From: Hyphomicrobiales bacterium
GTDB lineage: Bacteria; Pseudomonadota; Alphaproteobacteria; Rhizobiales; CBDCVD01
Reading direction: 5' to 3'
DNA length: 64,000 nt
Assembly (NCBI GenBank): GCA_965224015.1
Contig: OZ245032.1
Span: 1,516,354-1,580,353, forward strand
Below the pieces are notes generated by a model. The model saw only the letters and a program-made list of their open reading frames with translations, did not search any database and was not told where the DNA came from. Shown here piece by piece: positions 2,900-53,755 of the stretch (position 1 is the stretch's first letter; each line of letters starts with the position of its first letter). Position numbers and translations under genes: made by a program.

Positions 2900-5800
2900 A
2901 TCTTTGCCCCCGCCCAAGGTCACATCACCGTTGATCTTAGCCCCTTCATTGACCGTAAGTTGTGAGTTGCCGTCGCCATTGATAATGGCAGCGGTTCCCC
3001 CCCTGACATCGGCGTTGTCGTTAAGGGTGATCCTGGTCATCCCTCTCACTACTTCACGACTATCAATACCGTATTGGGTCCTGCCTTGCATCAGGCCATC
3101 GACCGCAATCACCGCGTTGCCGGAGCCCTGATGCTTGACAAAAATGCCATTATTTTCGCCGATCACGTTGCCGCTGCCGGAGGTGATCGTTAGGGCGTTG
3201 TTGTTATTTGTGTTATAAATCAATGCATTAATGCCATCTAGAGTTCTTCCGGTGACATTTCCGTTAGTCTCAATGGTCAAGGCTCCGGTACCTCTATGTT
3301 TGGCGAAGATACCGTCTAGGCCACCTTTCACCGCACCTGTGCCGGTGGTGATCGTTAGGGCGCTATCGTTTTGTAGATTGGTTACATAAACACGAATGCC
3401 ATAATGACTCCCTTGACCGGTGACATCCCCGCCACCGGTATTGATCGTCACAGCGCCCTTGCCAGAGTGCCCGGCAACAATGCCGTTTAGGGCACCTGTC
3501 ACCGCGCCTGTGCCGGTGGTGATCGTTAGGTCGTTTGTGTTATTGTTGTTAAAAATCTCTGTATAAATGCCATCATTTTTTGTTCCGGTGATATCTCCGT
3601 TGGTCTCAATGGTCAGGGCTCCGGCACCTTGATGTATGGCGTGGATACCGATTCGGCCTTTCACCGCGCCTGTGCCGGTGGTGATCTTTATGTCGTTTGT
3701 GTTATTTGCGTTAAAAATCTCTGCATAAATGCCATATTCATTTGTTCCGGTGACATTGCCATCGCCGGTGGTGACCGTCACAGCGCCCAGGCCATAATGC
3801 CGGGCGAAGATGCCGTGTTTGCCACCTTTCACCGCACCTGTGCCGGTGGTGATCGTTAGGGCGCTGTTGTTATTTGTGTTATAAATCAATGCATTAATGC
3901 CATCTAGAGTTCTTCCGGTGACATTTCCGTTAGTCTCAATGGTCAAGGCTCCGGTACCTCTATGTTTGGCGAAGATACCGTCTAGGCCACCTTCCACCGC
4001 ACCTGTGCCGGTGGTGATCGTTAGGGCGCTATCGTTTTGTAGATTGGTTACATAAACACGAATGCCATAATGACTCCCTTGACCGGTGACAGCCCCGCCA
4101 CCGGTATTGATCGTCACAGCGCCCTTGCCAGAGTGCTCGGCAACAATGCCGTTTAGGGCACCTGTCACCGCGCCTGTGCCGGTGGTGATCTTTAGGTCGT
4201 TTGTGTTATTGTTGTTAAAAATATCTGCATAAATGCCATCATTTTCTGTTCCGGTGATATCTCCGTTGGTCTCAATGGTCAGGGCTCCGGCACCTTGATG
4301 TGTGGCGCGGATACCGATTCGGCCTTTCACCGCGCCTGTACCGGTGGTGATCGTTATGTCGTTTGTGTTATTTGCGTTAAAAATCTCTGCATAAATGCCA
4401 TATTCATTTGTTCCGGTGACATTGCCATCGCCGGTGGTGATCGTCACAGCGCCCAGGCCACGGTGATCGGTGAAGATACCGTATTTGCCGCCTGTCACTG
4501 CGCCTGTGCCGGTGGTGATCTTTATGTCGTTTGTGTTATTCTGGTTAAAAATCTTTGCATAAATGCCATATTTATTTGTTCCGGTGACATCCCTGTCGCC
4601 GGTCTTGATCGTCACAGCGCCCAGGCCATAATGCTTGGCGAAGATACCGTATTGGCCACCGGTGACAGCGGCATTGGCGGTGATATTGAGCTCTCCGTTG
4701 CCGCCGGTGTTGTTTTTGTCCCCAATCTGTGCATCAATGCCAGCGACGGCTGTTCCGGTGATATCTCCGTTGGTCTCAATGGTCACGGCTCCGGTACCTG
4801 CATGTGTGGCGAAGATGCCGTATTGGCCACCTGTCACCGCGCCTGTGCCGGTGGTGATCGTCACAGCGCCCGTGCCATTGTGCTCCGCCCAGATACCGCG
4901 TCGGCCACCTTCCACCGCGCCTGTGCCGGTGGTGATTGTTAGGGCGCTATCGTTTTGTCGATTGGTTATAAAGCCAAAAATGCCGTCCTCCCCTTGACCG
5001 ATAACATCCCCGTCGCCGGTATTGATCGTCACAGCGCCCAAGCCACGGTGATGGGCGAAGATGCCGTATTTGCCACCTGTCACTTTGCCTGTGCCGGTGG
5101 TAATCTTTAGGGCGTTGTTGTTATCTACGTTATCAATCAATGCATTAATGGCATCTTTATTTGTTCCGGTGATATCTCCTTTGGTCTCAATGGTTACCGC
5201 GCCCTTGCCCTGGTGCTTCGCGAAGATGCCGTGTTTGCCACCTTTCACCGCACCTGTGCCGGTGGTGATCGTTAGGGCGCTGTTGTTATTTGTGTTATAA
5301 ATCAATGCATTAATGCCATCTAGAGTTCTTCCGGTGACATTTCCGTTAGTCTCAATGGTCAAGGCTCCGGTACCTCTATGTTTGGCGAAGATACCGTCTA
5401 GGCCACCTTCCACCGCACCTGTGCCGGTGGTGATCGTTAGGGCGCTATCGTTTTGTAGATTGGTTACATAAACACGAATGCCATAATGACTCCCTTGACC
5501 GGTGACAGCCCCGCCACCGGTATTGATCGTCACAGCGCCCTTGCCAGAGTGCTCGGCAACAATGCCGTTTAGGGCACCTGTCACCGCGCCTGTGCCGGTG
5601 GTGATCTTTAGGTCGTTTGTGTTATTGTTGTTAAAAATATCTGCATAAATGCCATCATTTTCTGTTCCGGTGATATCTCCGTTGGTCTCAATGGTCAGGG
5701 CTCCGGCACCTTGATGTGTGGCGCGGATACCGATTCGGCCTTTCACCGCGCCTGTACCGGTGGTGATCGTTATGTCGTTTGTGTTATTTGCGTTAAAAAT

Positions 5801-6480
5801 CTCTGCATAAATGCCATATTCATTTGTTCCGGTGACATTGCCATCGCCGGTGGTGATCGTCACAGCGCCCAGGCCACGGTGATCGGTGAAGATACCGTAT
5901 TTGCCGCCTGTCACTGCGCCTGTGCCGGTGGTGATCGTTATGTCGTTTGTGTTATTTGCGTTAAAAATCTTTGCATAAATGCCATATTTATTTGTTCCGG
6001 TGACATCCCTGTCGCCGGTCTTGATCGTCACAGCGCCCAGGCCATAATGCTTGGCGAAGATACCGTATTGGCCACCGGTGACAGCGGCATTGGCGGTGAT
6101 ATTGAGCTCTCCGTTGCCGCCGGTGTTGTTTTTGTCCCCAATCTGTGCATCAATGCCAGCGACGGCTGTTCCGGTGATATCTCCGTTGGTCTCAATGGTC
6201 ACGGCTCCGGTACCTGCATGTGTGGCGAAGATGCCGTTTTGGCCACCTGTCACCGCGCCTGTGCCGGTGGTGATTGTTAGGGCGCTATCGTTTTGTCGAT
6301 TGGTTATAAAGCCAAAAATGCCGTCCTTCTGGCCACCGGAGACAGCCCCGTCGCCGGTATTGATCGTCACAGCGCCCGTGCCAAATTGCTCCGCCACGAT
6401 GCCGTATTGGCCACCTGTCACCGCGCCTGTGCCGATGGTGATCGTTAAATCGCCGTCACTACCTGCGCGACCCACGGCTT
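2900..6480. repeat. Passenger-domain repeat array. It includes a near-identical direct duplication of about 1.2 kb (approximately 3805..4990 and 5221..6330, period 1416 bp, with an 84-nt indel) and degenerate sub-repeats of about 165 nt
   Basis: Identical DNA blocks sit 1416 bp apart (e.g. 4291 vs 5707, 3841 vs 5257). The ORF track shows identical antisense ORFs at 4295 and 5711. Confidence 0.75.
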
Positions 6481-41290: not shown

Positions 41291-41490
41291 CACTTTTGCC
41301 TCCAGGCCGAACCGAAGAGGCGGGCAAAAGCGCGTGTGAGAGGTTGCAAACTTGCTTTACTATTAACCAGAAGTTGGCATTTCTTATAAATTTCTATACA
41401 AAATGCTTGTAACACAATAAAACGGGAGGTGATTTTTGCCGTTGGCACGCTCTCGGGCTGGCAACAGAGCCCCGAAGGCGCATCACGACC

Positions 41491-41764
41491 TAGAGCGTAT
41501 CAGGTTTTAATAGAACCATTCTGACGGAGCGATTTTGCGACAAGATGGGCCTTAAGTCTCGCAGGATATAGTGGGGCTATTTGCAAGAGGCTTAAGGCCC
41601 ATATTGGCGCAAAAGCGCCCGTCCCTTCGGGTTTCCGATTGGCGGACGCCCACGCCCAAGCCGCTCTCGAGAGATGGATAAACATCGCTCTTCGATCGCC
41701 TTGAGCGTGGTTCGCCTCGCCAATCAAGAAACAGAATTGATTCTATTAAGACCTGATACGCTCT
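41491..41764. repeat. Roughly 270-bp element bounded by long imperfect inverted repeats (30-45 bp) and containing nested hairpins
   Basis: Left tagagcgtatcaggttttaatagaaccattctg (41491..41523) pairs with right cagaattgattctattaagacctgatacgctcta (41732..41764). Internal hairpins gggccttaag...cttaaggccc and cgtcccttcgggtttccgattggcggacg. Confidence 0.6.
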
Positions 41765-41845
41765 ATGGGGTCGCACAGTATTTTGCGCTGTTTTGTTGTA
41801 TTGCGTATACGGTTGCCTGTTTGCGTTGAGTTAGGAGTAGCGGGC

Positions 41846-48170: not shown

Positions 48171-48821
48171 ATGATTGCCCCCCGCATCACCACGATTGCA
48201 ATAACCGCCGCCTTCCTGACCGGCGGCTGTGCGAACATGGCGTTTCAGTCTCCTGACAATTGGTTCAAGGAGCGCGATATCGCCGCGCCAAGCGCTCAGC
48301 GGTTGAGTTACTGCAGCGGCTTCGCTTGCAAATTCGTAACCCCGATTCCCTTTTCCCGATCCAGACATCGACACCTGGCCGCGATCCTGGCGCGCGGCCG
48401 CCACAGTGCCAAGGCCGAGCGCGCAGCCCTTTCCAAAGCCGTTCAATGGTATGAAACCATGACCGGACCCATCGCCGGGACAAGCCAGGATCAGGGCGGA
48501 TGGGACCTTTCCAAATCCGGTACCCGCGGTGCCACCGATTGTCTGGACGAGGCCACCAACACGACCAGTCTGCTGATCATCGCCGAGGCGCGAAAATTAC
48601 TGAAATTTCACCGAACTGGCCGCCCTGTATCACGCGGCATGCTTATTGATGGGCGTTACCCTCACGCCACCGCGGTCGTTATCGACACCACCACCGAAAC
48701 ACCCTGGGCAATCGATTCGTGGGTTCGCGACAATGGCGAGCCGCCAGACGTAATGCCCCTTGCGGATTGGTACGCGCGGCGTCAACGGCAAGGCCCGTCA
48801 GGTTTTGACCGAACGCGGTGA
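48171..48821 (+). CDS. Hypothetical lipoprotein
   Basis: Lipobox AAFLTGGC after a hydrophobic leader. No recognisable domain. Confidence 0.45.
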   Translation: MIAPRITTIAITAAFLTGGCANMAFQSPDNWFKERDIAAPSAQRLSYCSGFACKFVTPIPFSRSRHRHLAAILARGRHSAKAERAALSKAVQWYETMTGPIAGTSQDQGGWDLSKSGTRGATDCLDEATNTTSLLIIAEARKLLKFHRTGRPVSRGMLIDGRYPHATAVVIDTTTETPWAIDSWVRDNGEPPDVMPLADWYARRQRQGPSGFDRTR

Positions 48822-48822
48822 C

Positions 48823-49080
48823 TTACTGCAAGGGATCAACGGAAACAAAGGTGCGCCCATTGGCTTTGGTGCGAAAAGTCACCTGTCCCTCAACAAGGGC
48901 AAAAAGGGTGTGATCCTTGCCGATCCCAACATTCTCGCCCGGGTGCCATTTCGTCCCGCGCTGGCGAATAATAATATTGCCGGGGATCACGTGCTCGCCG
49001 CCGTATTTTTTTACACCAAGGCGGCGCCCGGCGGTATCGCGGCCGTTGCGTGACGAGCCGCCTGCCTTTTTATGTGCCAT
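48823..49080 (-). CDS. rpmA: 50S ribosomal protein L27
   Basis: [48 protein letters not shown] is the canonical L27 sequence. Confidence 0.9.
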
Positions 49081-49131
49081 AATATCTCCTGAATATCTTC
49101 CGTCCTGTTTGGCAAATGCCGCGGTACATAG

Positions 49132-49275
49132 GTTCTAGATCAGCATGGCGTTAGCTGTACCCATTTTGCCAGGGGTAAAGCTAACGCCATAAAGCTGATC
49201 GCCCTGAAATCTATAGCAAAATGCGAGAAAAATACGGAATGCCTATGATTCCAATTAAACGCATTTTGCTCTAGG
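49132..49275. repeat. Family B composite palindromic element inside the rplU-rpmA spacer
   Basis: tctagatcagcatggcgttagctgtacccattttgcc...ctatagcaaaatgcgagaaaaatacggaatgcctatgattccaattaaacgcattttgctctag. Confidence 0.65.
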
Positions 49276-49303
49276 TTGATCGCGTTATGTGATCCGCGAA
49301 AGC

Positions 49304-49413
49304 CCGACTCATACCAAGGGTCCTTAACAATGACTCATGGATTAGCGTCAAGCAAGTATGTTATCAAGGCCGTACACCAGTCGGCGTGTACATAAAGCCA
49401 ATACCGCTGGTAT
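49304..49413 (-). repeat. MITE family A copy ending exactly at the rplU stop codon
   Basis: ataccaagggtccttaacaatgactcatgg...aagccaataccgctggtat. The terminal tat overlaps the stop TGA (complement 49413..49415). Confidence 0.8.
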
Positions 49414-50093
49414 CAGTCACCGTCCTTGCCACCGGATGTCTCAACGCCGGCTGCCTCGGCAGCCTTCTGATCGATTTTGGCACGAGGAGCCTTGCCCGCC
49501 ACCAGCTCCCTGGCCTGCTCTATCCATTCTTCCCGCGCGCTACGTCCCTGCAAGTCCAAATTTTCATCAAGCGCGGCCATTTCATCCTGACTGAGGTTGG
49601 CGATCTGCTGAAATTGCGTATACCCGGCCTCGTTGAGCTTTTTCACAATAACGGGTCCGACGCCGGAAATCAGCGACAAGTCATCGGAAGCGGGGTCGGA
49701 TTTTGTGGTTTCGTTCGGCGCGCTGGCTTTTTCCTGCCCCTTTACCACCCGATCAGCGACCTCGACGGGTTTGGGTTTATCCCCGGCACCCACAATATCG
49801 GTCACGCGGACAACCGTTTGATATTGCCGGTGCCCCTTGGTGCGACGATATTTCTTGCGTCGTTTTTTCTTGAAAACAATAATCTTCCTGGCACGCTTTT
49901 GCTCAACAATGCGGGCGCTCACGCTCGCCCCCGCCACAAGAGGGTCACCAATTACCGGCGCCTCTCCACCGATCATCAACACCTCTGCAAATGTAACCGT
50001 ATCGCCGGCCGCACCCGTCAGTTTTTCAACCGTTAACACATCGTTAGCGGCAACACGATACTGCTTGCCGCCGGTCTTAATGATTGCGAACAT
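49413..50093 (-). CDS. rplU: 50S ribosomal protein L21 with a long C-terminal extension
   Basis: N-terminus MFAIIKTGGKQYRVAANDVLTVEKL is canonical L21. Beyond about 105 aa comes a Lys/Glu-rich extension with a helix-hairpin-helix-like LISGVGPVIVKKLNEAGYTQFQQIANLS segment. Confidence 0.85.
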   Translation of the reverse strand: MFAIIKTGGKQYRVAANDVLTVEKLTGAAGDTVTFAEVLMIGGEAPVIGDPLVAGASVSARIVEQKRARKIIVFKKKRRKKYRRTKGHRQYQTVVRVTDIVGAGDKPKPVEVADRVVKGQEKASAPNETTKSDPASDDLSLISGVGPVIVKKLNEAGYTQFQQIANLSQDEMAALDENLDLQGRSAREEWIEQARELVAGKAPRAKIDQKAAEAAGVETSGGKDGD

Positions 50094-50283
50094 CGCCCTT
50101 CACCTAATTTTTCGCGCCCTGCGGTGCCGATATTCTCGGTCTTTACGCTACAGATCGGCAAATGTAGAGCCTGCAATTTCTGCAAGCCCATTTCATATTG
50201 CCATCTCAAGCAACCTCAAGCAGCGATTTCCCCTCGGGGACCTGAAACCAAATAGCAATATCGGGTTTTACAAGCACCAGCTT

Positions 50284-50386
50284 ATACCAGCGGTATTGGC
50301 TTTATAGACACGCCGACTGGTGTACTGCCTTGATAACACATCTCTTTGACGCTAAGCCATGAGTCATTGTTAAAGACCCTTGGTAT
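50284..50386 (+). repeat. MITE family A copy upstream of rplU
   Basis: ataccagcggtattggctttatagacacgccgactggtgtactgccttgataacaca...gacccttggtat. Confidence 0.8.
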
Positions 50387-50622
50387 TAAAGCGCCCAAAA
50401 CCCGATATCGCAAGTCTTTTATCACAAACAGCCGTCAATATCCACCTCCATTGCCAAAACCAAAGAGGCCTCCTGCAACTGTTTGTTTGTTAACGTACCC
50501 CCATGCGCTTTGGTGCAAATGCCTCTCCCAAGCCTGCACCGCACAGCAACATAGGCAAAGGTGCGAGAAAGTCAACACACCTGGCCTTATAACCTTACCA
50601 CCTGACGGAATAATACCAAGGG

Positions 50623-50715
50623 TCCTTACCAATGACTCATGGATTAGCGTCAAGCAAGTATGTTATCAAGGCCCTACACCAGTCGGCGTGTCTATAAAGC
50701 CAATACCGCTGGTAT
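50623..50715 (-). repeat. MITE family A copy (reverse orientation)
   Basis: ataccaagggtccttaccaatgactcatggattagcg...ccaataccgctggtat. Confidence 0.8.
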
Positions 50716-50895
50716 TATTTCCCGGGGATTTGCTCAAAAACACTCAGATATTGGTGTTTTCGGAAAATGTCAGGTGGTGAGGCTTCATTGTTATGCCTCT
50801 TGGTTATGCCTCTTGACACCTTAGGCCACACGGCCTATATTTTAAGTATACAGCGCGGGCAAAGTGCCCCGCCTTTTTAAATAAAGGAGATTACA

Positions 50896-51063
50896 ATGAC
50901 AGACCAAGAACAACGCCTTGCTGATGATAAGATGCGGGCGGAAATTGCTAAATTGTTGGCTGAAACCAAGCAAATCAGCGTCAATACGTTCCTGTCACCG
51001 TTTCTTGCCGCTGCTGGTTTGATGGGAGCCACAGCAGCGCTCGTTAAGCTGCTTTACACATGA
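50896..51063 (+). CDS. Small (55 aa) protein with a C-terminal hydrophobic membrane anchor
   Basis: AAGGAG is 7 nt upstream of the ATG. MTDQEQRLADDKMRAEIAKLLAETKQ is followed by a TM-like FLSPFLAAAGLMGATAALVKLLYT. Its TGA overlaps the next gene's ATG (ATGA). Confidence 0.45.
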   Translation: MTDQEQRLADDKMRAEIAKLLAETKQISVNTFLSPFLAAAGLMGATAALVKLLYT

Positions 51064-51263
51064 CACCCGCTGAATTCAAAAAGGCCCGACACAAGCTGGG
51101 CCTTACTTTATCAAAATGCGCTCAACTGATTGGGTACACCGGCGCGCATGCGCAACAGCAAGTGCGGCGTATGGAAACAGGGGAGCGTGAAATCCGCGAG
51201 GCGCAACAACGCTTGATGCAGGCCTATCTTGATGGTTATCGCCCCAAGGATTGGCCGCGATAG
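51060..51263 (+). CDS. Small XRE-family helix-turn-helix protein (67 aa)
   Basis: HTH segment FKKARHKLGLTLSKCAQLIGYTGAHAQQQVRRME; translationally coupled to the upstream 55-aa ORF. Confidence 0.55.
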   Translation: MTPAEFKKARHKLGLTLSKCAQLIGYTGAHAQQQVRRMETGEREIREAQQRLMQAYLDGYRPKDWPR

Positions 51264-51418
51264 GGTGGGCAAAAAAAAACGCCGCGAATCGAAGTAACCG
51301 ATTCCAGCGTCGCCTCTCACGATGGTATCAAGTCCCTTCAAACCGCCGTCTGACAACGATTGTCACCCCCTTTTGGGCATGTTCCACCCGTGCGGTTCAA
51401 GCGCAAAGCGAGGGTTTG

Positions 51419-51521
51419 ATACCAGCGGTATTGGCTTTATAGACACGCCGACTGGTGTACTGCCTTGATAACATACCTCTTTGACGCTAAGCCATGAGTC
51501 ATTGTTAAAGACCCTTGGTAT
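51419..51521 (+). repeat. MITE family A copy
   Basis: ataccagcggtattggctttatagacacgccgactggtgtactgccttgataacatacctctttgacgctaagccatgagtcattgttaaagacccttggtat. Confidence 0.8.
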
Positions 51522-51685
51522 GACTTGCGTTTCAATGCCATCCCCCTTATTGGAAAACGCGGATCTATCTCCGTGCTTACCATAAAGGCCCATAAAGACG
51601 GTGCGCGGGATTGGATAACACCGTTGTTTGTTCCTAGGCTGACAGAACCCCATGTCACGTGAGCAGGCTTGATGAATTGGAAACT

Positions 51686-52609
51686 ATGAACACGCCCTTT
51701 TATCTGTGTATTGACGGTGGCGGTACCAAAACCCATGGGGTTTTGCTGTCCGCCGGCGGCGAAAATCTCGCCGAGGGACGCACAGGACCGTCGAATTTAC
51801 ACACGGATTTCAGCCTGGGGATTACCAACATCTCGTCACTTTGGGAGCAACTTGCTCACAAGGCTGGGCTTGAGCCACGCCAGGCGTGTGCCGAAACCCA
51901 TTTTGCGCTTGGCGCTGCTGGGCTCGATCTTTACGATCTGCGCCTCAAAATGGCACGGCAATTCATGCATTTTGCGGCCATTACACAGGTGTCCGATGGA
52001 TACGCCGCCTTAATTGGGGCGTCCAATGGAAAACCCGCCGGATTGATTGCAGTGGGCACAGGGGTGATCGCCTATCGCATTGACCACAAGGGACAGGTGA
52101 TAACCCGTGAGGGCTGGAGCTGGATTGCCGGAGACCGCGGCAGCGGCATGTGGATTGGACGCAAGGCGCTTTATGCTTATCTGGAGGCCCACGATGAGGA
52201 GGTGACTTTCGAAACGCCCCTGTTTCGCCGCCTGGCGGACCATATCGGGCGCGAACGCCAGTCCATTTTTGCATGGATACAGAAGGCCAACCCCGCCGGA
52301 CTAGCGGAGTTGGCGCCCCTGGTATTCGCCGCGCAAAAAGAACAGGACCCGCTCGCTGGTGACATACTGGATGCCGCCTTGCAAAAAATCGTCAACACCA
52401 TCCACTCTCTTTCCACACCTGACGATGATCCCCTTTATGTGGTTGGCAGTGTGGGGCTGGCTCTACGCACACAGATTGAACACAAGCTCAGGCGCAGCCT
52501 TAGCGATCCGTTGCACGGACAAACACACGGCCTTTATCTGATCGCACAAGGAAATGTGCCCCCCGACTGTGATCTCAGCTATCCAACAAATGCCGGCACC
52601 CAGAGATAA
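51686..52609 (+). CDS. N-acetylglucosamine kinase-like ATPase (BadF/BadG/BcrA/BcrD family)
   Basis: N-terminal ATP-binding motif FYLCIDGGGTKTHGVLL and a second ASKHA-fold motif WSWIAGDRGSG. Confidence 0.65.
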   Translation: MNTPFYLCIDGGGTKTHGVLLSAGGENLAEGRTGPSNLHTDFSLGITNISSLWEQLAHKAGLEPRQACAETHFALGAAGLDLYDLRLKMARQFMHFAAITQVSDGYAALIGASNGKPAGLIAVGTGVIAYRIDHKGQVITREGWSWIAGDRGSGMWIGRKALYAYLEAHDEEVTFETPLFRRLADHIGRERQSIFAWIQKANPAGLAELAPLVFAAQKEQDPLAGDILDAALQKIVNTIHSLSTPDDDPLYVVGSVGLALRTQIEHKLRRSLSDPLHGQTHGLYLIAQGNVPPDCDLSYPTNAGTQR

Positions 52610-52612
52610 GTT

Positions 52613-53755
52613 ATGGCGGCGCGTATTATTCACGAGCAACCTGCCTATATTTTAACCCCGCGGGGCTGGATACACGGGCTCCTGGAACATGAAGCGGGAA
52701 CGATCACAGCCGTCGTACCGTCTGACGCCAAAGCGCAAACACGGCCCATTCCCCGCCACGTGACCCCGAGCGGTCCCTATGCCATCCCCGGCTTCATTGA
52801 CCTGCACAACCACGGAGGCGGGGGCGCGGATGCCATGGCCGGAGAGGCAAGTGTACGCCAAATGGCACGCTTTCACGCCAGTCGCGGCACGACCGCGCTC
52901 TGCCCCACCACACTCACCGCCCCCACAGAAGAGATCGCCACCGCGCTTGTCGGCATTGAGGCCGTCCGCAAGACCGCCGGTGAAGGGGAAGCACGGGTGC
53001 TGGGGGTCCACCTGGAGGGCCCCTTTATCAATCCTGACAAGCTGGGCGCACAGCCGGATTTCCCAATGGTGCCGGACCTGGCTCTGGTCAATACGTGGAT
53101 GGACCTGGCGCGCATTACGGTTACAACCGTTGCACCGGAGCTTGACGGGGCTCACAGCCTGATTTCCCAATTGCGGCGTACCGGCACCCGCGTTCAGTTG
53201 GGCCATACTTTGGCAAGCAGCACACAGGCCGAACAGGGGTTTGCCGCAGGCGCCACCGGCATCACCCATCTGTTTAACGCCATGAGCGGCAGCCATCACC
53301 GTGACACGGGGGTCGCGGGTTTTGCCCTGGCTTGTGCCCAATATGCAGAGATCATTTGCGACCTGCAGCACGTGTCGTCGTCTATGATTCTGGCCGCATT
53401 CAGGGCCATTCCACACCTTTATTGCGTGAGCGACTGTATTCACGCCGCCGGCCTTACTGACGGAGAGTACTGTTTGGGAAGGCATTTGGTAAAGAAAACG
53501 GCAAATCGCGTGACCCTGGTGGACGGAAGCACCCTGGCGGGGAGTGTTTTGACCATGGATCAGGCCCTACGCAATCTCGTTGTGATTGGGATTTCCCTGG
53601 CGGACGGTTCCGCCATGACATCGACACGTCCGGCACAATATCTTGGACTTGATGACATAGGCGTAATCGCCCCGGGCTACCGGGCCGCCATCGTTTATCT
53701 TGACGAAAACCTGAATGTGATGGATACGGTAATCGACGGCACACTTATCGGTTGA
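52613..53755 (+). CDS. nagA: N-acetylglucosamine-6-phosphate deacetylase
   Basis: PGFIDLHNHGGGG metal-binding motif and the TIM-barrel amidohydrolase layout; immediately downstream of the kinase gene. Confidence 0.75.
   Translation: MAARIIHEQPAYILTPRGWIHGLLEHEAGTITAVVPSDAKAQTRPIPRHVTPSGPYAIPGFIDLHNHGGGGADAMAGEASVRQMARFHASRGTTALCPTTLTAPTEEIATALVGIEAVRKTAGEGEARVLGVHLEGPFINPDKLGAQPDFPMVPDLALVNTWMDLARITVTTVAPELDGAHSLISQLRRTGTRVQLGHTLASSTQAEQGFAAGATGITHLFNAMSGSHHRDTGVAGFALACAQYAEIICDLQHVSSSMILAAFRAIPHLYCVSDCIHAAGLTDGEYCLGRHLVKKTANRVTLVDGSTLAGSVLTMDQALRNLVVIGISLADGSAMTSTRPAQYLGLDDIGVIAPGYRAAIVYLDENLNVMDTVIDGTLIG

Follow-up and report, generated by a model that had tools for sequence, protein, structure and literature searches.

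A coupled two-gene module in a Hyphomicrobiales genome

We analysed a 64,000-nucleotide stretch of DNA from a Hyphomicrobiales bacterium (contig OZ245032.1, positions 1,516,354 to 1,580,353; hereafter the window), and report here on a compact module of two small genes within it. Gene 1 (50896-51063, plus strand) encodes a 55-amino-acid peptide with features of a tail-anchored membrane protein, and gene 2 (51060-51263, plus strand) encodes a 67-amino-acid protein of the XRE/Cro-type helix-turn-helix (HTH) class. The stop codon of gene 1 overlaps the start codon of gene 2 by 4 bp in the sequence ATGA. An earlier sequence-only reading had recognized this overlapping pair; its coordinates are confirmed, and both genes are under selection. 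The strong ribosome-binding sites that the same reading assigned to both genes hold for gene 1, which carries the Shine-Dalgarno sequence GGAG (50886-50889, plus strand) 7 nt 5' of its ATG, but not for gene 2, which has no obvious Shine-Dalgarno sequence of its own and relies on the ATGA overlap for initiation.

The extent of the conserved unit is revealed by the closest relative of the module, which resides in a sister genome (locus L010, accession OZ244974.1, described as 'MAG: Hyphomicrobiales bacterium') and whose gene 1 product is 98% identical to that of the window. When the window was compared with this locus by blastn, only positions 50803-51260 were shared, at 92.6% nucleotide identity, and this segment corresponds to the promoter and the two genes in an otherwise different locus. 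The spacers that separate the module from the repeats on either side of it in the window match nothing in any locus fetched for this study. Because of this restricted similarity, the travelling unit is a 460-bp operon rather than a larger segment bounded by repeats. The L010 copy is flanked by phage-like genes, including one for a DUF5131/Gp37-Gp68-type protein, and by an open reading frame (ORF) that, judged by eye, we take to be HK97 gp10-like.

Both genes are under purifying selection. In gene 1 the ratio of the proportions of non-synonymous and synonymous differences (pN/pS) relative to L010 is 0.05, and in gene 2 it is 0.19; comparisons of both genes with more distant copies from Rhodobacterales yield pS values of 0.76-0.95, which are near saturation, with pN values of only 0.12-0.16.

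Predicted structures and families of the two proteins

An AlphaFold2 model of the gene 1 peptide, constructed with 45 homologues, contains helices at residues 3-24 and 29-54 (mean predicted local distance difference test score, pLDDT, 82.8), in agreement with the helical N-terminus and C-terminal transmembrane segment proposed earlier. The first helix is amphipathic and is predicted to be cytosolic, whereas the second is rich in alanine and glycine and would span the membrane; the Kyte-Doolittle hydropathy maximum for a 19-residue interval is ~1.5, at residues 31-49. Because only two residues follow the C-terminal helix, the peptide is expected to be tail-anchored. Near-invariant positions in the family comprise the cytosolic helix LADDKMRAEIAKLLAET and a transmembrane core consisting of P35, A39, A40 and T46. 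More than 130 close homologues were found, and a profile search expanded the family to at least 216 clusters at 50% identity, which span Alpha-, Beta- and Gammaproteobacteria together with their temperate phages. Nearly all of these homologues are 45-135 amino acids long. Among 88 family members compared with the PHROG collection, 75 match phrog_6330 and 50 match phrog_9071, both of which have no assigned function.

The gene 2 product is modelled as a four-helix XRE domain (pLDDT 94.9), consistent with its earlier description as a minimal XRE protein, and as modelled it has the helical HTH fold typified by 434 Cro/C1. Along its whole sequence it matches phrog_14076 ('transcriptional regulator'; E=1.8e-23), and its family, represented by 34 close homologues, carries the invariant C-terminal motif RLxxAYLDGYRPxDWP. 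Two paralogues of gene 2 (P0122 and P0144) are present in the source genome. The best structural matches of the gene 2 product are restriction-modification C proteins (C.Kpn2I, C.BclI, C.Csp231I and C.AhdI), and the model superposes on C proteins, HigA2, Aca2 and Aca10 with TM-scores of 0.6-0.76 and root-mean-square deviations of 1.1-1.9 Å. Other fold matches include HipB, MqsA and SinR, and the gene 2 profile also matches Aca3 (E=1.8e-5) and the 434 repressor. A sub-threshold match to the model 'Control_protein' (E=0.057) was observed as well.

A promoter palindrome and a covarying hairpin precede the genes

Upstream of gene 1 lies a sigma-70-type promoter, TTGACA-17-TATATT (50813-50841, plus strand), which matches the consensus at 11 of 12 positions and is the best promoter-like site between positions 50000 and 51800. 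Its spacer carries a perfect palindrome, TAGGCC-acac-GGCCTA (50822-50837, plus strand; TAGGCCacacGGCCTA), a putative operator that occurs only once in the 64 kb of the window. The palindrome is followed by a hairpin in the 5' untranslated region (UTR), GCGGGC-aaagt-GCCCCGC (50855-50872, plus strand), which is conserved across paired loci and is followed by a T-run.

This anatomy recurs when the upstream regions of about 20 loci carrying both genes are aligned, each of which presents a -35 element (TTGACA, TTGACG or TTGCA), a spacer occupied by a palindrome, a -10 element, a short hairpin, GGAG and the ATG. The palindrome keeps its position in all paired loci, and its sequence changes with the subtype of the XRE protein encoded downstream, such that TAGCGCCAnTGGCGCTA and close variants accompany the common type ii XRE, TAGGCCnnnnGGCCTA and GTATGCCgcttGGCATAC accompany the window-type XRE, and GGGGCCAATGGCCC accompanies the type iii XRE. 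Because the palindrome co-varies with XRE subtype in this manner, we infer that gene 2 binds the palindrome and represses its own expression.

The hairpin is likewise maintained despite changes to its sequence. Stem pairings of GGGC/GCCC, GAGC/GCTC, GGAC/GTCC and AGGC/GCCT are observed among the loci, with double changes in three of four base pairs, and 92.8% of alignment cells can pair compared with 34-53% when the partner strand is slid. The loop sequence also tracks the XRE subtype among the window (50855-50879) and the corresponding position of 20 other loci, being AATGAA for type ii, AAAGT in the window and AACGGT for type iii. The T-run that follows the hairpin in the window, in L010 and in locus L018 renders it terminator-like in these copies. 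An Rfam search of positions 48500-52500 (E≤1) yielded no match, and therefore neither the hairpin nor the nearby repeats correspond to known RNA families. The hairpin may be an attenuator, a structure that stabilizes the 5' end of the mRNA, or a binding site for the HTH protein on the RNA, as has been observed for Aca1 and Aca2.

The -35 hexamer of the window copy is abutted by a 13-nt tandem duplication (gttatgcctcttg, two copies, 50790-50815, plus strand), which is present as a single copy in L010. Just 5' of this duplication is the sequence tcattgttatgcctcttgg, which resembles a terminus (tcattgttaaagacccttggta) of the repeat family that flanks the module, with the TTGACA hexamer aligning to the terminal TTGGTA of the repeat.

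Phages carry the same gene pair

Conserved pairing of the two genes, which the sequence-only reading had proposed to look for, is observed both in bacterial genomes and in phages. Paracoccus phage vB_PkoS_Pkon1 encodes p72 (62 amino acids) and p71 (an XRE protein) with a 4-bp overlap and the same arrangement of promoter palindrome and hairpin. These two genes lie between the amidase endolysin and holin genes, on the strand opposite to the lysis genes and with their own promoter, a location typical of morons. In Serratia phage vB_SspM_BZS1 the order of genes is p26, p25 and an O-acetylase gene, and in Bordetella phage IFTN8 the gp34/gp33 pair adjoins the integrase gene. Among 21 relatives of gene 1 in IMG/VR, 19 are followed by an HTH protein of 86-89 amino acids, either at a distance of 31-44 nt or overlapping by 1 nt. 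The HTH protein of these contigs belongs to phrog_20491, which is weakly related to phrog_14076, and its gene is often followed by cargo that varies, for example an acyltransferase gene. The layout of the module recurs in about two dozen genomes, in Pkon1 and, with phrog_20491 as the second protein, in viral contigs and in phages of Serratia and Bordetella.

Some of these associations have been noticed previously. The report on phage BZS1 drew attention to the pair, to its resemblance to Pkon1 p72/p71 and to its repeated presence in Serratia prophages, where an acetyltransferase is always adjacent, and stated that there was no hint as to what these proteins do (PMC7556043). By sequence, the window module belongs to this catalogued but uncharacterised phage pair, phrog_6330/9071 with phrog_14076. 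Like Pkon1 p72/p71 and BZS1 p26/p25, it encodes a peptide with a C-terminal transmembrane segment followed by an HTH protein. It differs from these phage examples in that it lies outside a phage, carries an XRE protein of another subtype (ending in DGYRPKDWP and accompanied by the TAGGCCnnnnGGCCTA operator), and has no cargo gene after it.

The HTH family also has other partners. In 46 viral contigs, a protein with the DGYRPxDWP signature of gene 2 is encoded after one of a varied set of small ORFs, in many cases with a 4-bp overlap. Only one of these upstream ORFs resembles gene 1. A PHROG scan of nine of the upstream partners matched no family. Searches of Escherichia coli genomes matched only the Serratia-type HTH gene, which is linked there to an acyltransferase gene in the absence of the peptide. 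A phrog_20491 gene heads an operon with an O-antigen-type acyltransferase both in the prophage of E. coli PCN061 (locus L162, 2926-4280) and in BZS1 (locus L092, 2471-4094). These acyltransferase operons lie opposite an O-acetylesterase or tail gene, and the peptide is encoded in Serratia but not in E. coli.

Because gene 2 matches phrog_14076, gene 1 falls within the phrog_6330/9071 superfamily, and the pair is carried by Pkon1, BZS1 and IFTN8, these sequence relationships assign the window pair a phage ancestry. Phage morons that encode small membrane proteins, such as HK97 gp15 and the D3 Iap peptide, are expressed from their own promoters in the lysogen and are inserted among structural or lysis genes or run antisense to them. 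An independent promoter, a location between or antisense to phage genes, and variable presence are all observed for the family in Pkon1, BZS1, IFTN8 and viral contigs. To our knowledge, morons of the HK97 gp15 or D3 Iap type have no coupled HTH gene and encode proteins of other topologies. A remnant of a prophage immunity (cI/cro) region, which had been suggested earlier, was also considered and rejected, as a divergent repressor pair is lacking and the phage copies lie outside immunity regions.

Paired, solitary and decayed copies in bacterial genomes

A scan of species-representative genomes identified 80 loci with relatives of gene 1, mostly from Rhodobacterales (Paracoccus, Amaricoccus, Ketogulonicigenium, Marivita and Ruegeria) with a few from Hyphomicrobiales. 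Pairing was counted over 78 genome loci. A gene-2-type XRE gene follows with a 4-bp or 1-bp overlap in 23 of these, whereas the peptide is encoded without such a gene in 54. Many solitary peptides are near-identical to paired ones (for example, MTHQEQALADDKMRAEIAKLLAETKQINVNTFLAPALAAAALMGGTAALVKLVF) and are located behind a different upstream region and promoter.

One group of solitary copies occupies a constant position. In 13 loci (L026, L038, L049, L054, L063-L066, L070, L072, L076, L085 and L086), the peptide gene at approximately 6001-6165 of the fetched sequence is followed 60-100 nt downstream by the start of mutL. These copies belong to Marivita and related genomes of the Roseobacter group, share a conserved and distinct upstream region, and look like a domesticated chromosomal form of the peptide gene. 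Two other loci (L027 and L028) have no mutL after the peptide gene and instead carry a second, tandem paralogue with a different transmembrane segment.

A decayed pair was also encountered. The locus L008/L071 carries an intact gene for a 72-amino-acid peptide (4001-4219 in L008) followed by a remnant of a type iii XRE gene (4249-4415) that is split over two reading frames and is likely a pseudogene. An insertion sequence (rve) is located close by. The reversed gene order is found in a Paracoccus metagenome-assembled genome (locus L047), in which a gene-2-type XRE gene (5710-5898) lies ~100 nt upstream of a distant relative of gene 1 (6001-6192). In Paracoccus denitrificans (locus L005, CP087987.1; 2453-4165 and 5477-6502), the peptide gene shares 4 bp with the end of a pentapeptide-repeat gene, which itself follows the anti-restriction gene ardA. 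They form part of a series of short ORFs on one strand, close to a tyrosine integrase gene, in a setting that resembles an anti-defence island.

At loci where the pair is intact, the partners are interchangeable. The same peptide is found in Alphaproteobacteria with three XRE subtypes, a single XRE subtype pairs with different peptide subtypes, and at least four types of HTH protein accompany gene 1 in total. The type iii XRE lacks the RPxxWP tail, and the three XRE subtypes have no partner-binding region in common, whereas the helix of the peptide is conserved regardless of HTH subtype. Genes surrounding the paired loci include housekeeping genes and those for terminase, tail fibres, Ant, transposases, a restriction-modification pair and MazF. 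No recurrent neighbour was found among 120 ORFs flanking 24 paired loci when these were scanned with Pfam and PHROG models.

Proposed interpretation of the module as a phage-borne, autorepressed operon

We favour the interpretation, to which we assign a probability of roughly 0.55, that the window carries an orphan copy of a phage-borne, moron-type operon composed of a payload gene and a gene for an HTH autorepressor. Under this model, the XRE protein would bind the palindrome between the -35 and -10 elements, and perhaps also the 5' UTR hairpin, and thereby repress its own promoter. Arrival of the operon in a naive cell would then yield a burst of peptide that is subsequently capped at a low level. 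The tail-anchored peptide would be the payload, acting in the inner membrane on a conserved host or phage target, probably through both its Ala/Gly-rich transmembrane helix and the hyper-conserved cytosolic helix. Plausible roles include exclusion, defence, counter-defence, or assistance with envelope modification for the lysogen.

The proposed burst-then-cap logic is shared with anti-CRISPR (acr-aca) operons, restriction-modification C proteins and toxin-first toxin-antitoxin (TA) operons. The resemblance to acr-aca systems, including those with Aca1, Aca2, Aca3 and Aca10, involves several features: a small payload gene placed 5' of a gene for a small HTH protein, an inverted repeat that overlaps the promoter, a stem-loop conserved in the 5' UTR, an HTH protein that associates promiscuously with diverse upstream phage partners, and a predicted fold near those of Aca2 and Aca10. 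Operons of this kind carry an inverted repeat in the promoter and hairpins in the 5' UTR, and both Aca2 and Aca1 bind DNA and RNA (PMC13551039, PMC6765145). The window module differs in that its payload is predicted to be membrane-anchored rather than a soluble Cas inhibitor, and in that the sequence of its hairpin is unlike that of its operator. C proteins, like gene 2 in the proposed model, are dimeric XRE proteins of small size that regulate themselves by binding palindromes which overlap their own promoters. However, a C gene lies ahead of the gene under its control, its product both activates and represses, and there are no restriction-modification genes at the window locus. By the tests conducted here, the module is not a member of any acr-aca, C-protein or TA family.

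A number of observations weigh against this interpretation. The window copy adjoins no phage genes and lies in no recognizable prophage. No terminator-like site was found by a scan of the plus strand between the gene 2 stop codon and the start of the NagK-like gene (51264-51658), which is unfavourable to the view that the operon is self-contained. The transmembrane segment of gene 1 is plausible but marginal, given that it is proposed from a hydropathy maximum of ~1.5 and from family comparison. Scans of the gene 1 family with Pfam, NCBIfam and PADLOC models returned only chance coiled-coil matches, such as those to APS kinase, SipD and JetC. Gene 2 itself scores below the Pfam cut-offs for HTH_3 (16.8 bits versus 23) and HTH_31 (17.3 bits versus 27), although its type ii relative passes at 31 bits. 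Binding of the palindrome and hairpin by the XRE protein is predicted from their positions and their co-variation with XRE subtype. Finally, the analogy with acr-aca operons would extend only to regulation; the Acr proteins of which we are aware are unlike membrane peptides, and no homology to Acr proteins emerged, although no Acr library was searched.

Possible toxin-antitoxin function

A second interpretation, also raised by the sequence-only reading, is that the genes form a type II TA or abortive-infection system, in which the peptide would oligomerize and depolarize the membrane while the XRE protein neutralizes it by binding and also regulates its own expression, such that loss of the antitoxin, on phage attack or once the element itself has been lost, releases the toxin. 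The toxin-first bicistronic arrangement, the conserved 4-bp or 1-bp overlap and the palindromic putative operator all favour such a system, and the module resembles HigBA, MqsRA and RosmerTA in placing the effector first and the HTH protein second, in its coupling and putative autoregulatory palindrome, and in its mobility. The mix-and-match promiscuity of both partners is typical of TA networks. The module is mobile and independent of context, with copies in prophages, and the peptide gene alone is present among TA genes on Paracoccus plasmids. The transmembrane helix carries small-xxx-small motifs (AAAGLMGATAA), and gene 2 has a weak match to the MqsA subfamily (E=1.6e-4, 21.4 bits versus a threshold of 61.8) in addition to the fold similarity to HigA2, HipB and MqsA noted above.

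There is also precedent for a phage toxin of this type. The RmrA antitoxin of Rosmer systems consists of an XRE HTH domain joined to a zinc-peptidase (ImmA/IrrE-like) domain. Gene 2, with its 67 amino acids, is an HTH domain only, and lacks both this peptidase domain and the zinc domain of MqsA. Toxins of Rosmer systems may bear a membrane segment at the C-terminus and depolarize cells, and RmrT of phage Kita is an example from a phage TA system (PMC10440598). The gene 1 peptide has no homology to HigB, MqsR or RmrT, and unlike these toxins it is frequently solitary. No match to Rosmer models was obtained with PADLOC, no known toxin, antitoxin or defence model from Pfam, NCBIfam or PADLOC was matched above threshold by either protein, and a literature search for tail-anchored TA pairs returned nothing relevant.

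A number of findings argue against this interpretation. The peptide occurs without the XRE protein at most genome loci, often in near-identical form and in a conserved position upstream of mutL, and an intact peptide gene persists at one locus beside a frameshifted XRE gene. Three XRE subtypes that accompany the same peptide share no conserved region through which an antitoxin might bind it. Moreover, the HTH protein heads cargo operons with acyltransferase genes in Serratia and E. coli prophages, and the peptide is absent in E. coli. Because solitary peptide genes are served by other promoters and an intact peptide gene is tolerated beside a frameshifted XRE gene, control at the level of transcription seems more consistent with these data than obligate neutralization. 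Thus, the coupled, TA-like architecture proposed earlier is retained, whereas assignment to a classical TA system is not, and we consider a TA function rather unlikely. The module is a real, mobile, phage-type mini-operon that is TA-like in layout and probably not a classical TA system.

Possible regulation of downstream genes

Alternatively, the peptide might be a membrane-tethered modulator of the HTH protein, in the manner of SinI and SinR, with the pair controlling downstream cargo that in the window could comprise the NagK-like and NagA-like genes. A small partner followed by an XRE protein is the order seen in sinI-sinR, gene 2 matches SinR in fold, and the pairs in Gamma- and Betaproteobacterial phages head operons with variable cargo, including acyltransferases, directly after the HTH gene. 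Such a role is possible for the enterobacterial versions. In the window, the NagK-like gene is encoded on the same strand as gene 2 with no terminator-like site between them, a point that also favours regulation of this kind. However, most Alphaproteobacterial copies have neither cargo nor a consistent downstream gene, solitary peptides have no HTH protein to modulate, and the peptide helix is conserved across HTH subtypes. In addition, a 101-nt repeat and ~400 nt separate gene 2 from the NagK-like gene. For the module, this explanation is judged improbable.

Possible lysis function

It is more doubtful still that the module is a phage lysis accessory, with the peptide as a membrane factor similar to a holin/antiholin or to XhlA that persists, along with its regulator, from a decayed lysis cassette. 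The location of the Pkon1 pair between endolysin and holin genes is suggestive, and the two copies from Pseudogemmobacter (L020 and L022) have a stem-loop before the module promoter similar to the one that, in Pkon1, comes directly after the amidase gene and lies upstream of the pair. One member of the gene 1 family weakly matches the 'hemolysin' family phrog_1193, and the topology of a tail-anchored coiled coil with a transmembrane segment would suit such a factor. Against this, the Pkon1 pair runs antisense to the lysis genes from a promoter of its own, other phages carry the pair beside tail-fibre or integrase genes, and most genomic copies have no lysis genes nearby. Constitutive, autoregulated expression would also be poorly suited to a late lysis function.

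Genomic setting and flanking MITEs

As noted in the sequence-only reading, the module is inserted between ribosomal protein genes and nagK. On one side are rplU (L21; 49413-50093, minus strand) and rpmA (L27; 48823-49080, minus strand), and on the other are genes for a BadF/BcrA-type, NagK-like sugar kinase (51659-52609, on the same strand as gene 2) and a NagA-like amidohydrolase (52613-53755). A weak AT-rich hairpin with a T-run lies 3' of gene 2 at approximately 51351-51375. As the scan detected no terminator-like site ahead of the NagK-like gene, the strong promoter of the module could drive read-through across the right-hand repeat into nagK-nagA. The L21 protein encoded in the window is 226 amino acids long and includes a C-terminal extension of ~125 amino acids with a helix-hairpin-helix (HHH_5) motif.

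The repeats that flank the module belong to a family, here called family A, that is short, non-coding and multicopy, with terminal inverted repeats and target duplications, and is thus a family of miniature inverted-repeat transposable elements (MITEs). A search with a 39-mer core found eight copies in the window, where none are expected. When copies are aligned with their flanks, the element is 101 nt long (TACCAGCGG...CCCTTGGTA), with weak 10-nt terminal inverted repeats (TACCAGCGGT/TACCAAGGGT, matching at 8 of 10 positions) and a 3-bp TNA target duplication in seven of the eight copies. The inverted copies reported earlier on either side of the module are confirmed with corrected limits. 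The left copy (50614-50714, minus strand) is flanked by TAA (50611-50613) and TTA (50715-50717), and the right copy (51420-51520, plus strand) has a perfect TGA duplication (51417-51419 and 51521-51523).

Four family A copies are crowded into 2.2 kb (49300-51532) in the order minus, plus, minus, plus. In addition to the two beside the module, one resides in the spacer of the rplU-rpmA operon (49312-49412, minus strand; flanks 49309-49311 and 49413-49415) and another upstream of rplU (50285-50385, plus strand). As a result, inverted copies enclose rplU together with the sequence upstream of it, in the same arrangement as around the two-gene module. The target duplication of the copy at 49312-49412 (TGA on the minus strand) is the stop codon of rplU, such that insertion occurred exactly at the end of the L21 reading frame. 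A second MITE family, with an element of 276 nt and ~30-nt terminal inverted repeats (AGAGCGTATCAGGT.TTAATAGAA...), has one copy in the window (41490-41765), and the L010 module lies between inverted copies of this element (L010 5380-5655 and 6611-6883).

These arrangements bear on the earlier suggestion that the MITE pair mobilizes the two-gene segment as a composite unit. The two family A copies are indeed inverted, 92% complementary and 703 nt apart, and the L010 module also lies between inverted repeats, though of the other family. However, the outermost trinucleotides of the pair are TAA and TGA, and no duplication surrounds the pair, which is the check that the sequence-only reading had proposed; this absence, together with the separate insertion footprints of the two copies (TGA/TGA for the right and TAA/TTA for the left), therefore speaks against composite transposition. 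The inter-MITE sequence outside 50803-51260 is matched neither in L010 nor in any other fetched locus, family A copies are numerous and crowded here and bracket rplU in the same way, and MITEs are absent from the Rhodobacterales and phage copies of the module. Composite transposition is accordingly all but refuted and the least probable of the explanations considered, and we infer that the MITE bracket is coincidental and that the intergenic region is a hotspot for MITE insertion. An inverted pair of MITEs around a gene is not diagnostic of a mobile cassette in a MITE-rich genome, as even rplU is bracketed in this one.

Implications

The findings can be extended to a broader proposal, which we advance only tentatively. 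The peptide family and its interchangeable HTH partners might represent a new and widespread class of phage-encoded membrane effector, serving either as a depolarizing TA or abortive-infection toxin or as a counter-defence or exclusion factor directed against a conserved inner-membrane protein of the host. Control by the HTH protein would perhaps occur at two levels, through the DNA operator and through the 5' UTR hairpin, as with Aca2. The promoter palindrome and the covarying hairpin offer concrete experimental handles on this system.

Small phage modules are common, and the existence of another overturns no expectation, yet this family is widespread, strikingly conserved and tractable. If the peptide is an effector, whether for defence, exclusion, counter-defence or toxicity, a function would be provided for two PHROG families that are distributed among temperate phages of three proteobacterial classes and many Rhodobacterales chromosomes. 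In that event, a membrane-anchored payload would also be added to the design, known from acr-aca and TA operons, in which a payload gene is joined to a gene for an HTH autorepressor.

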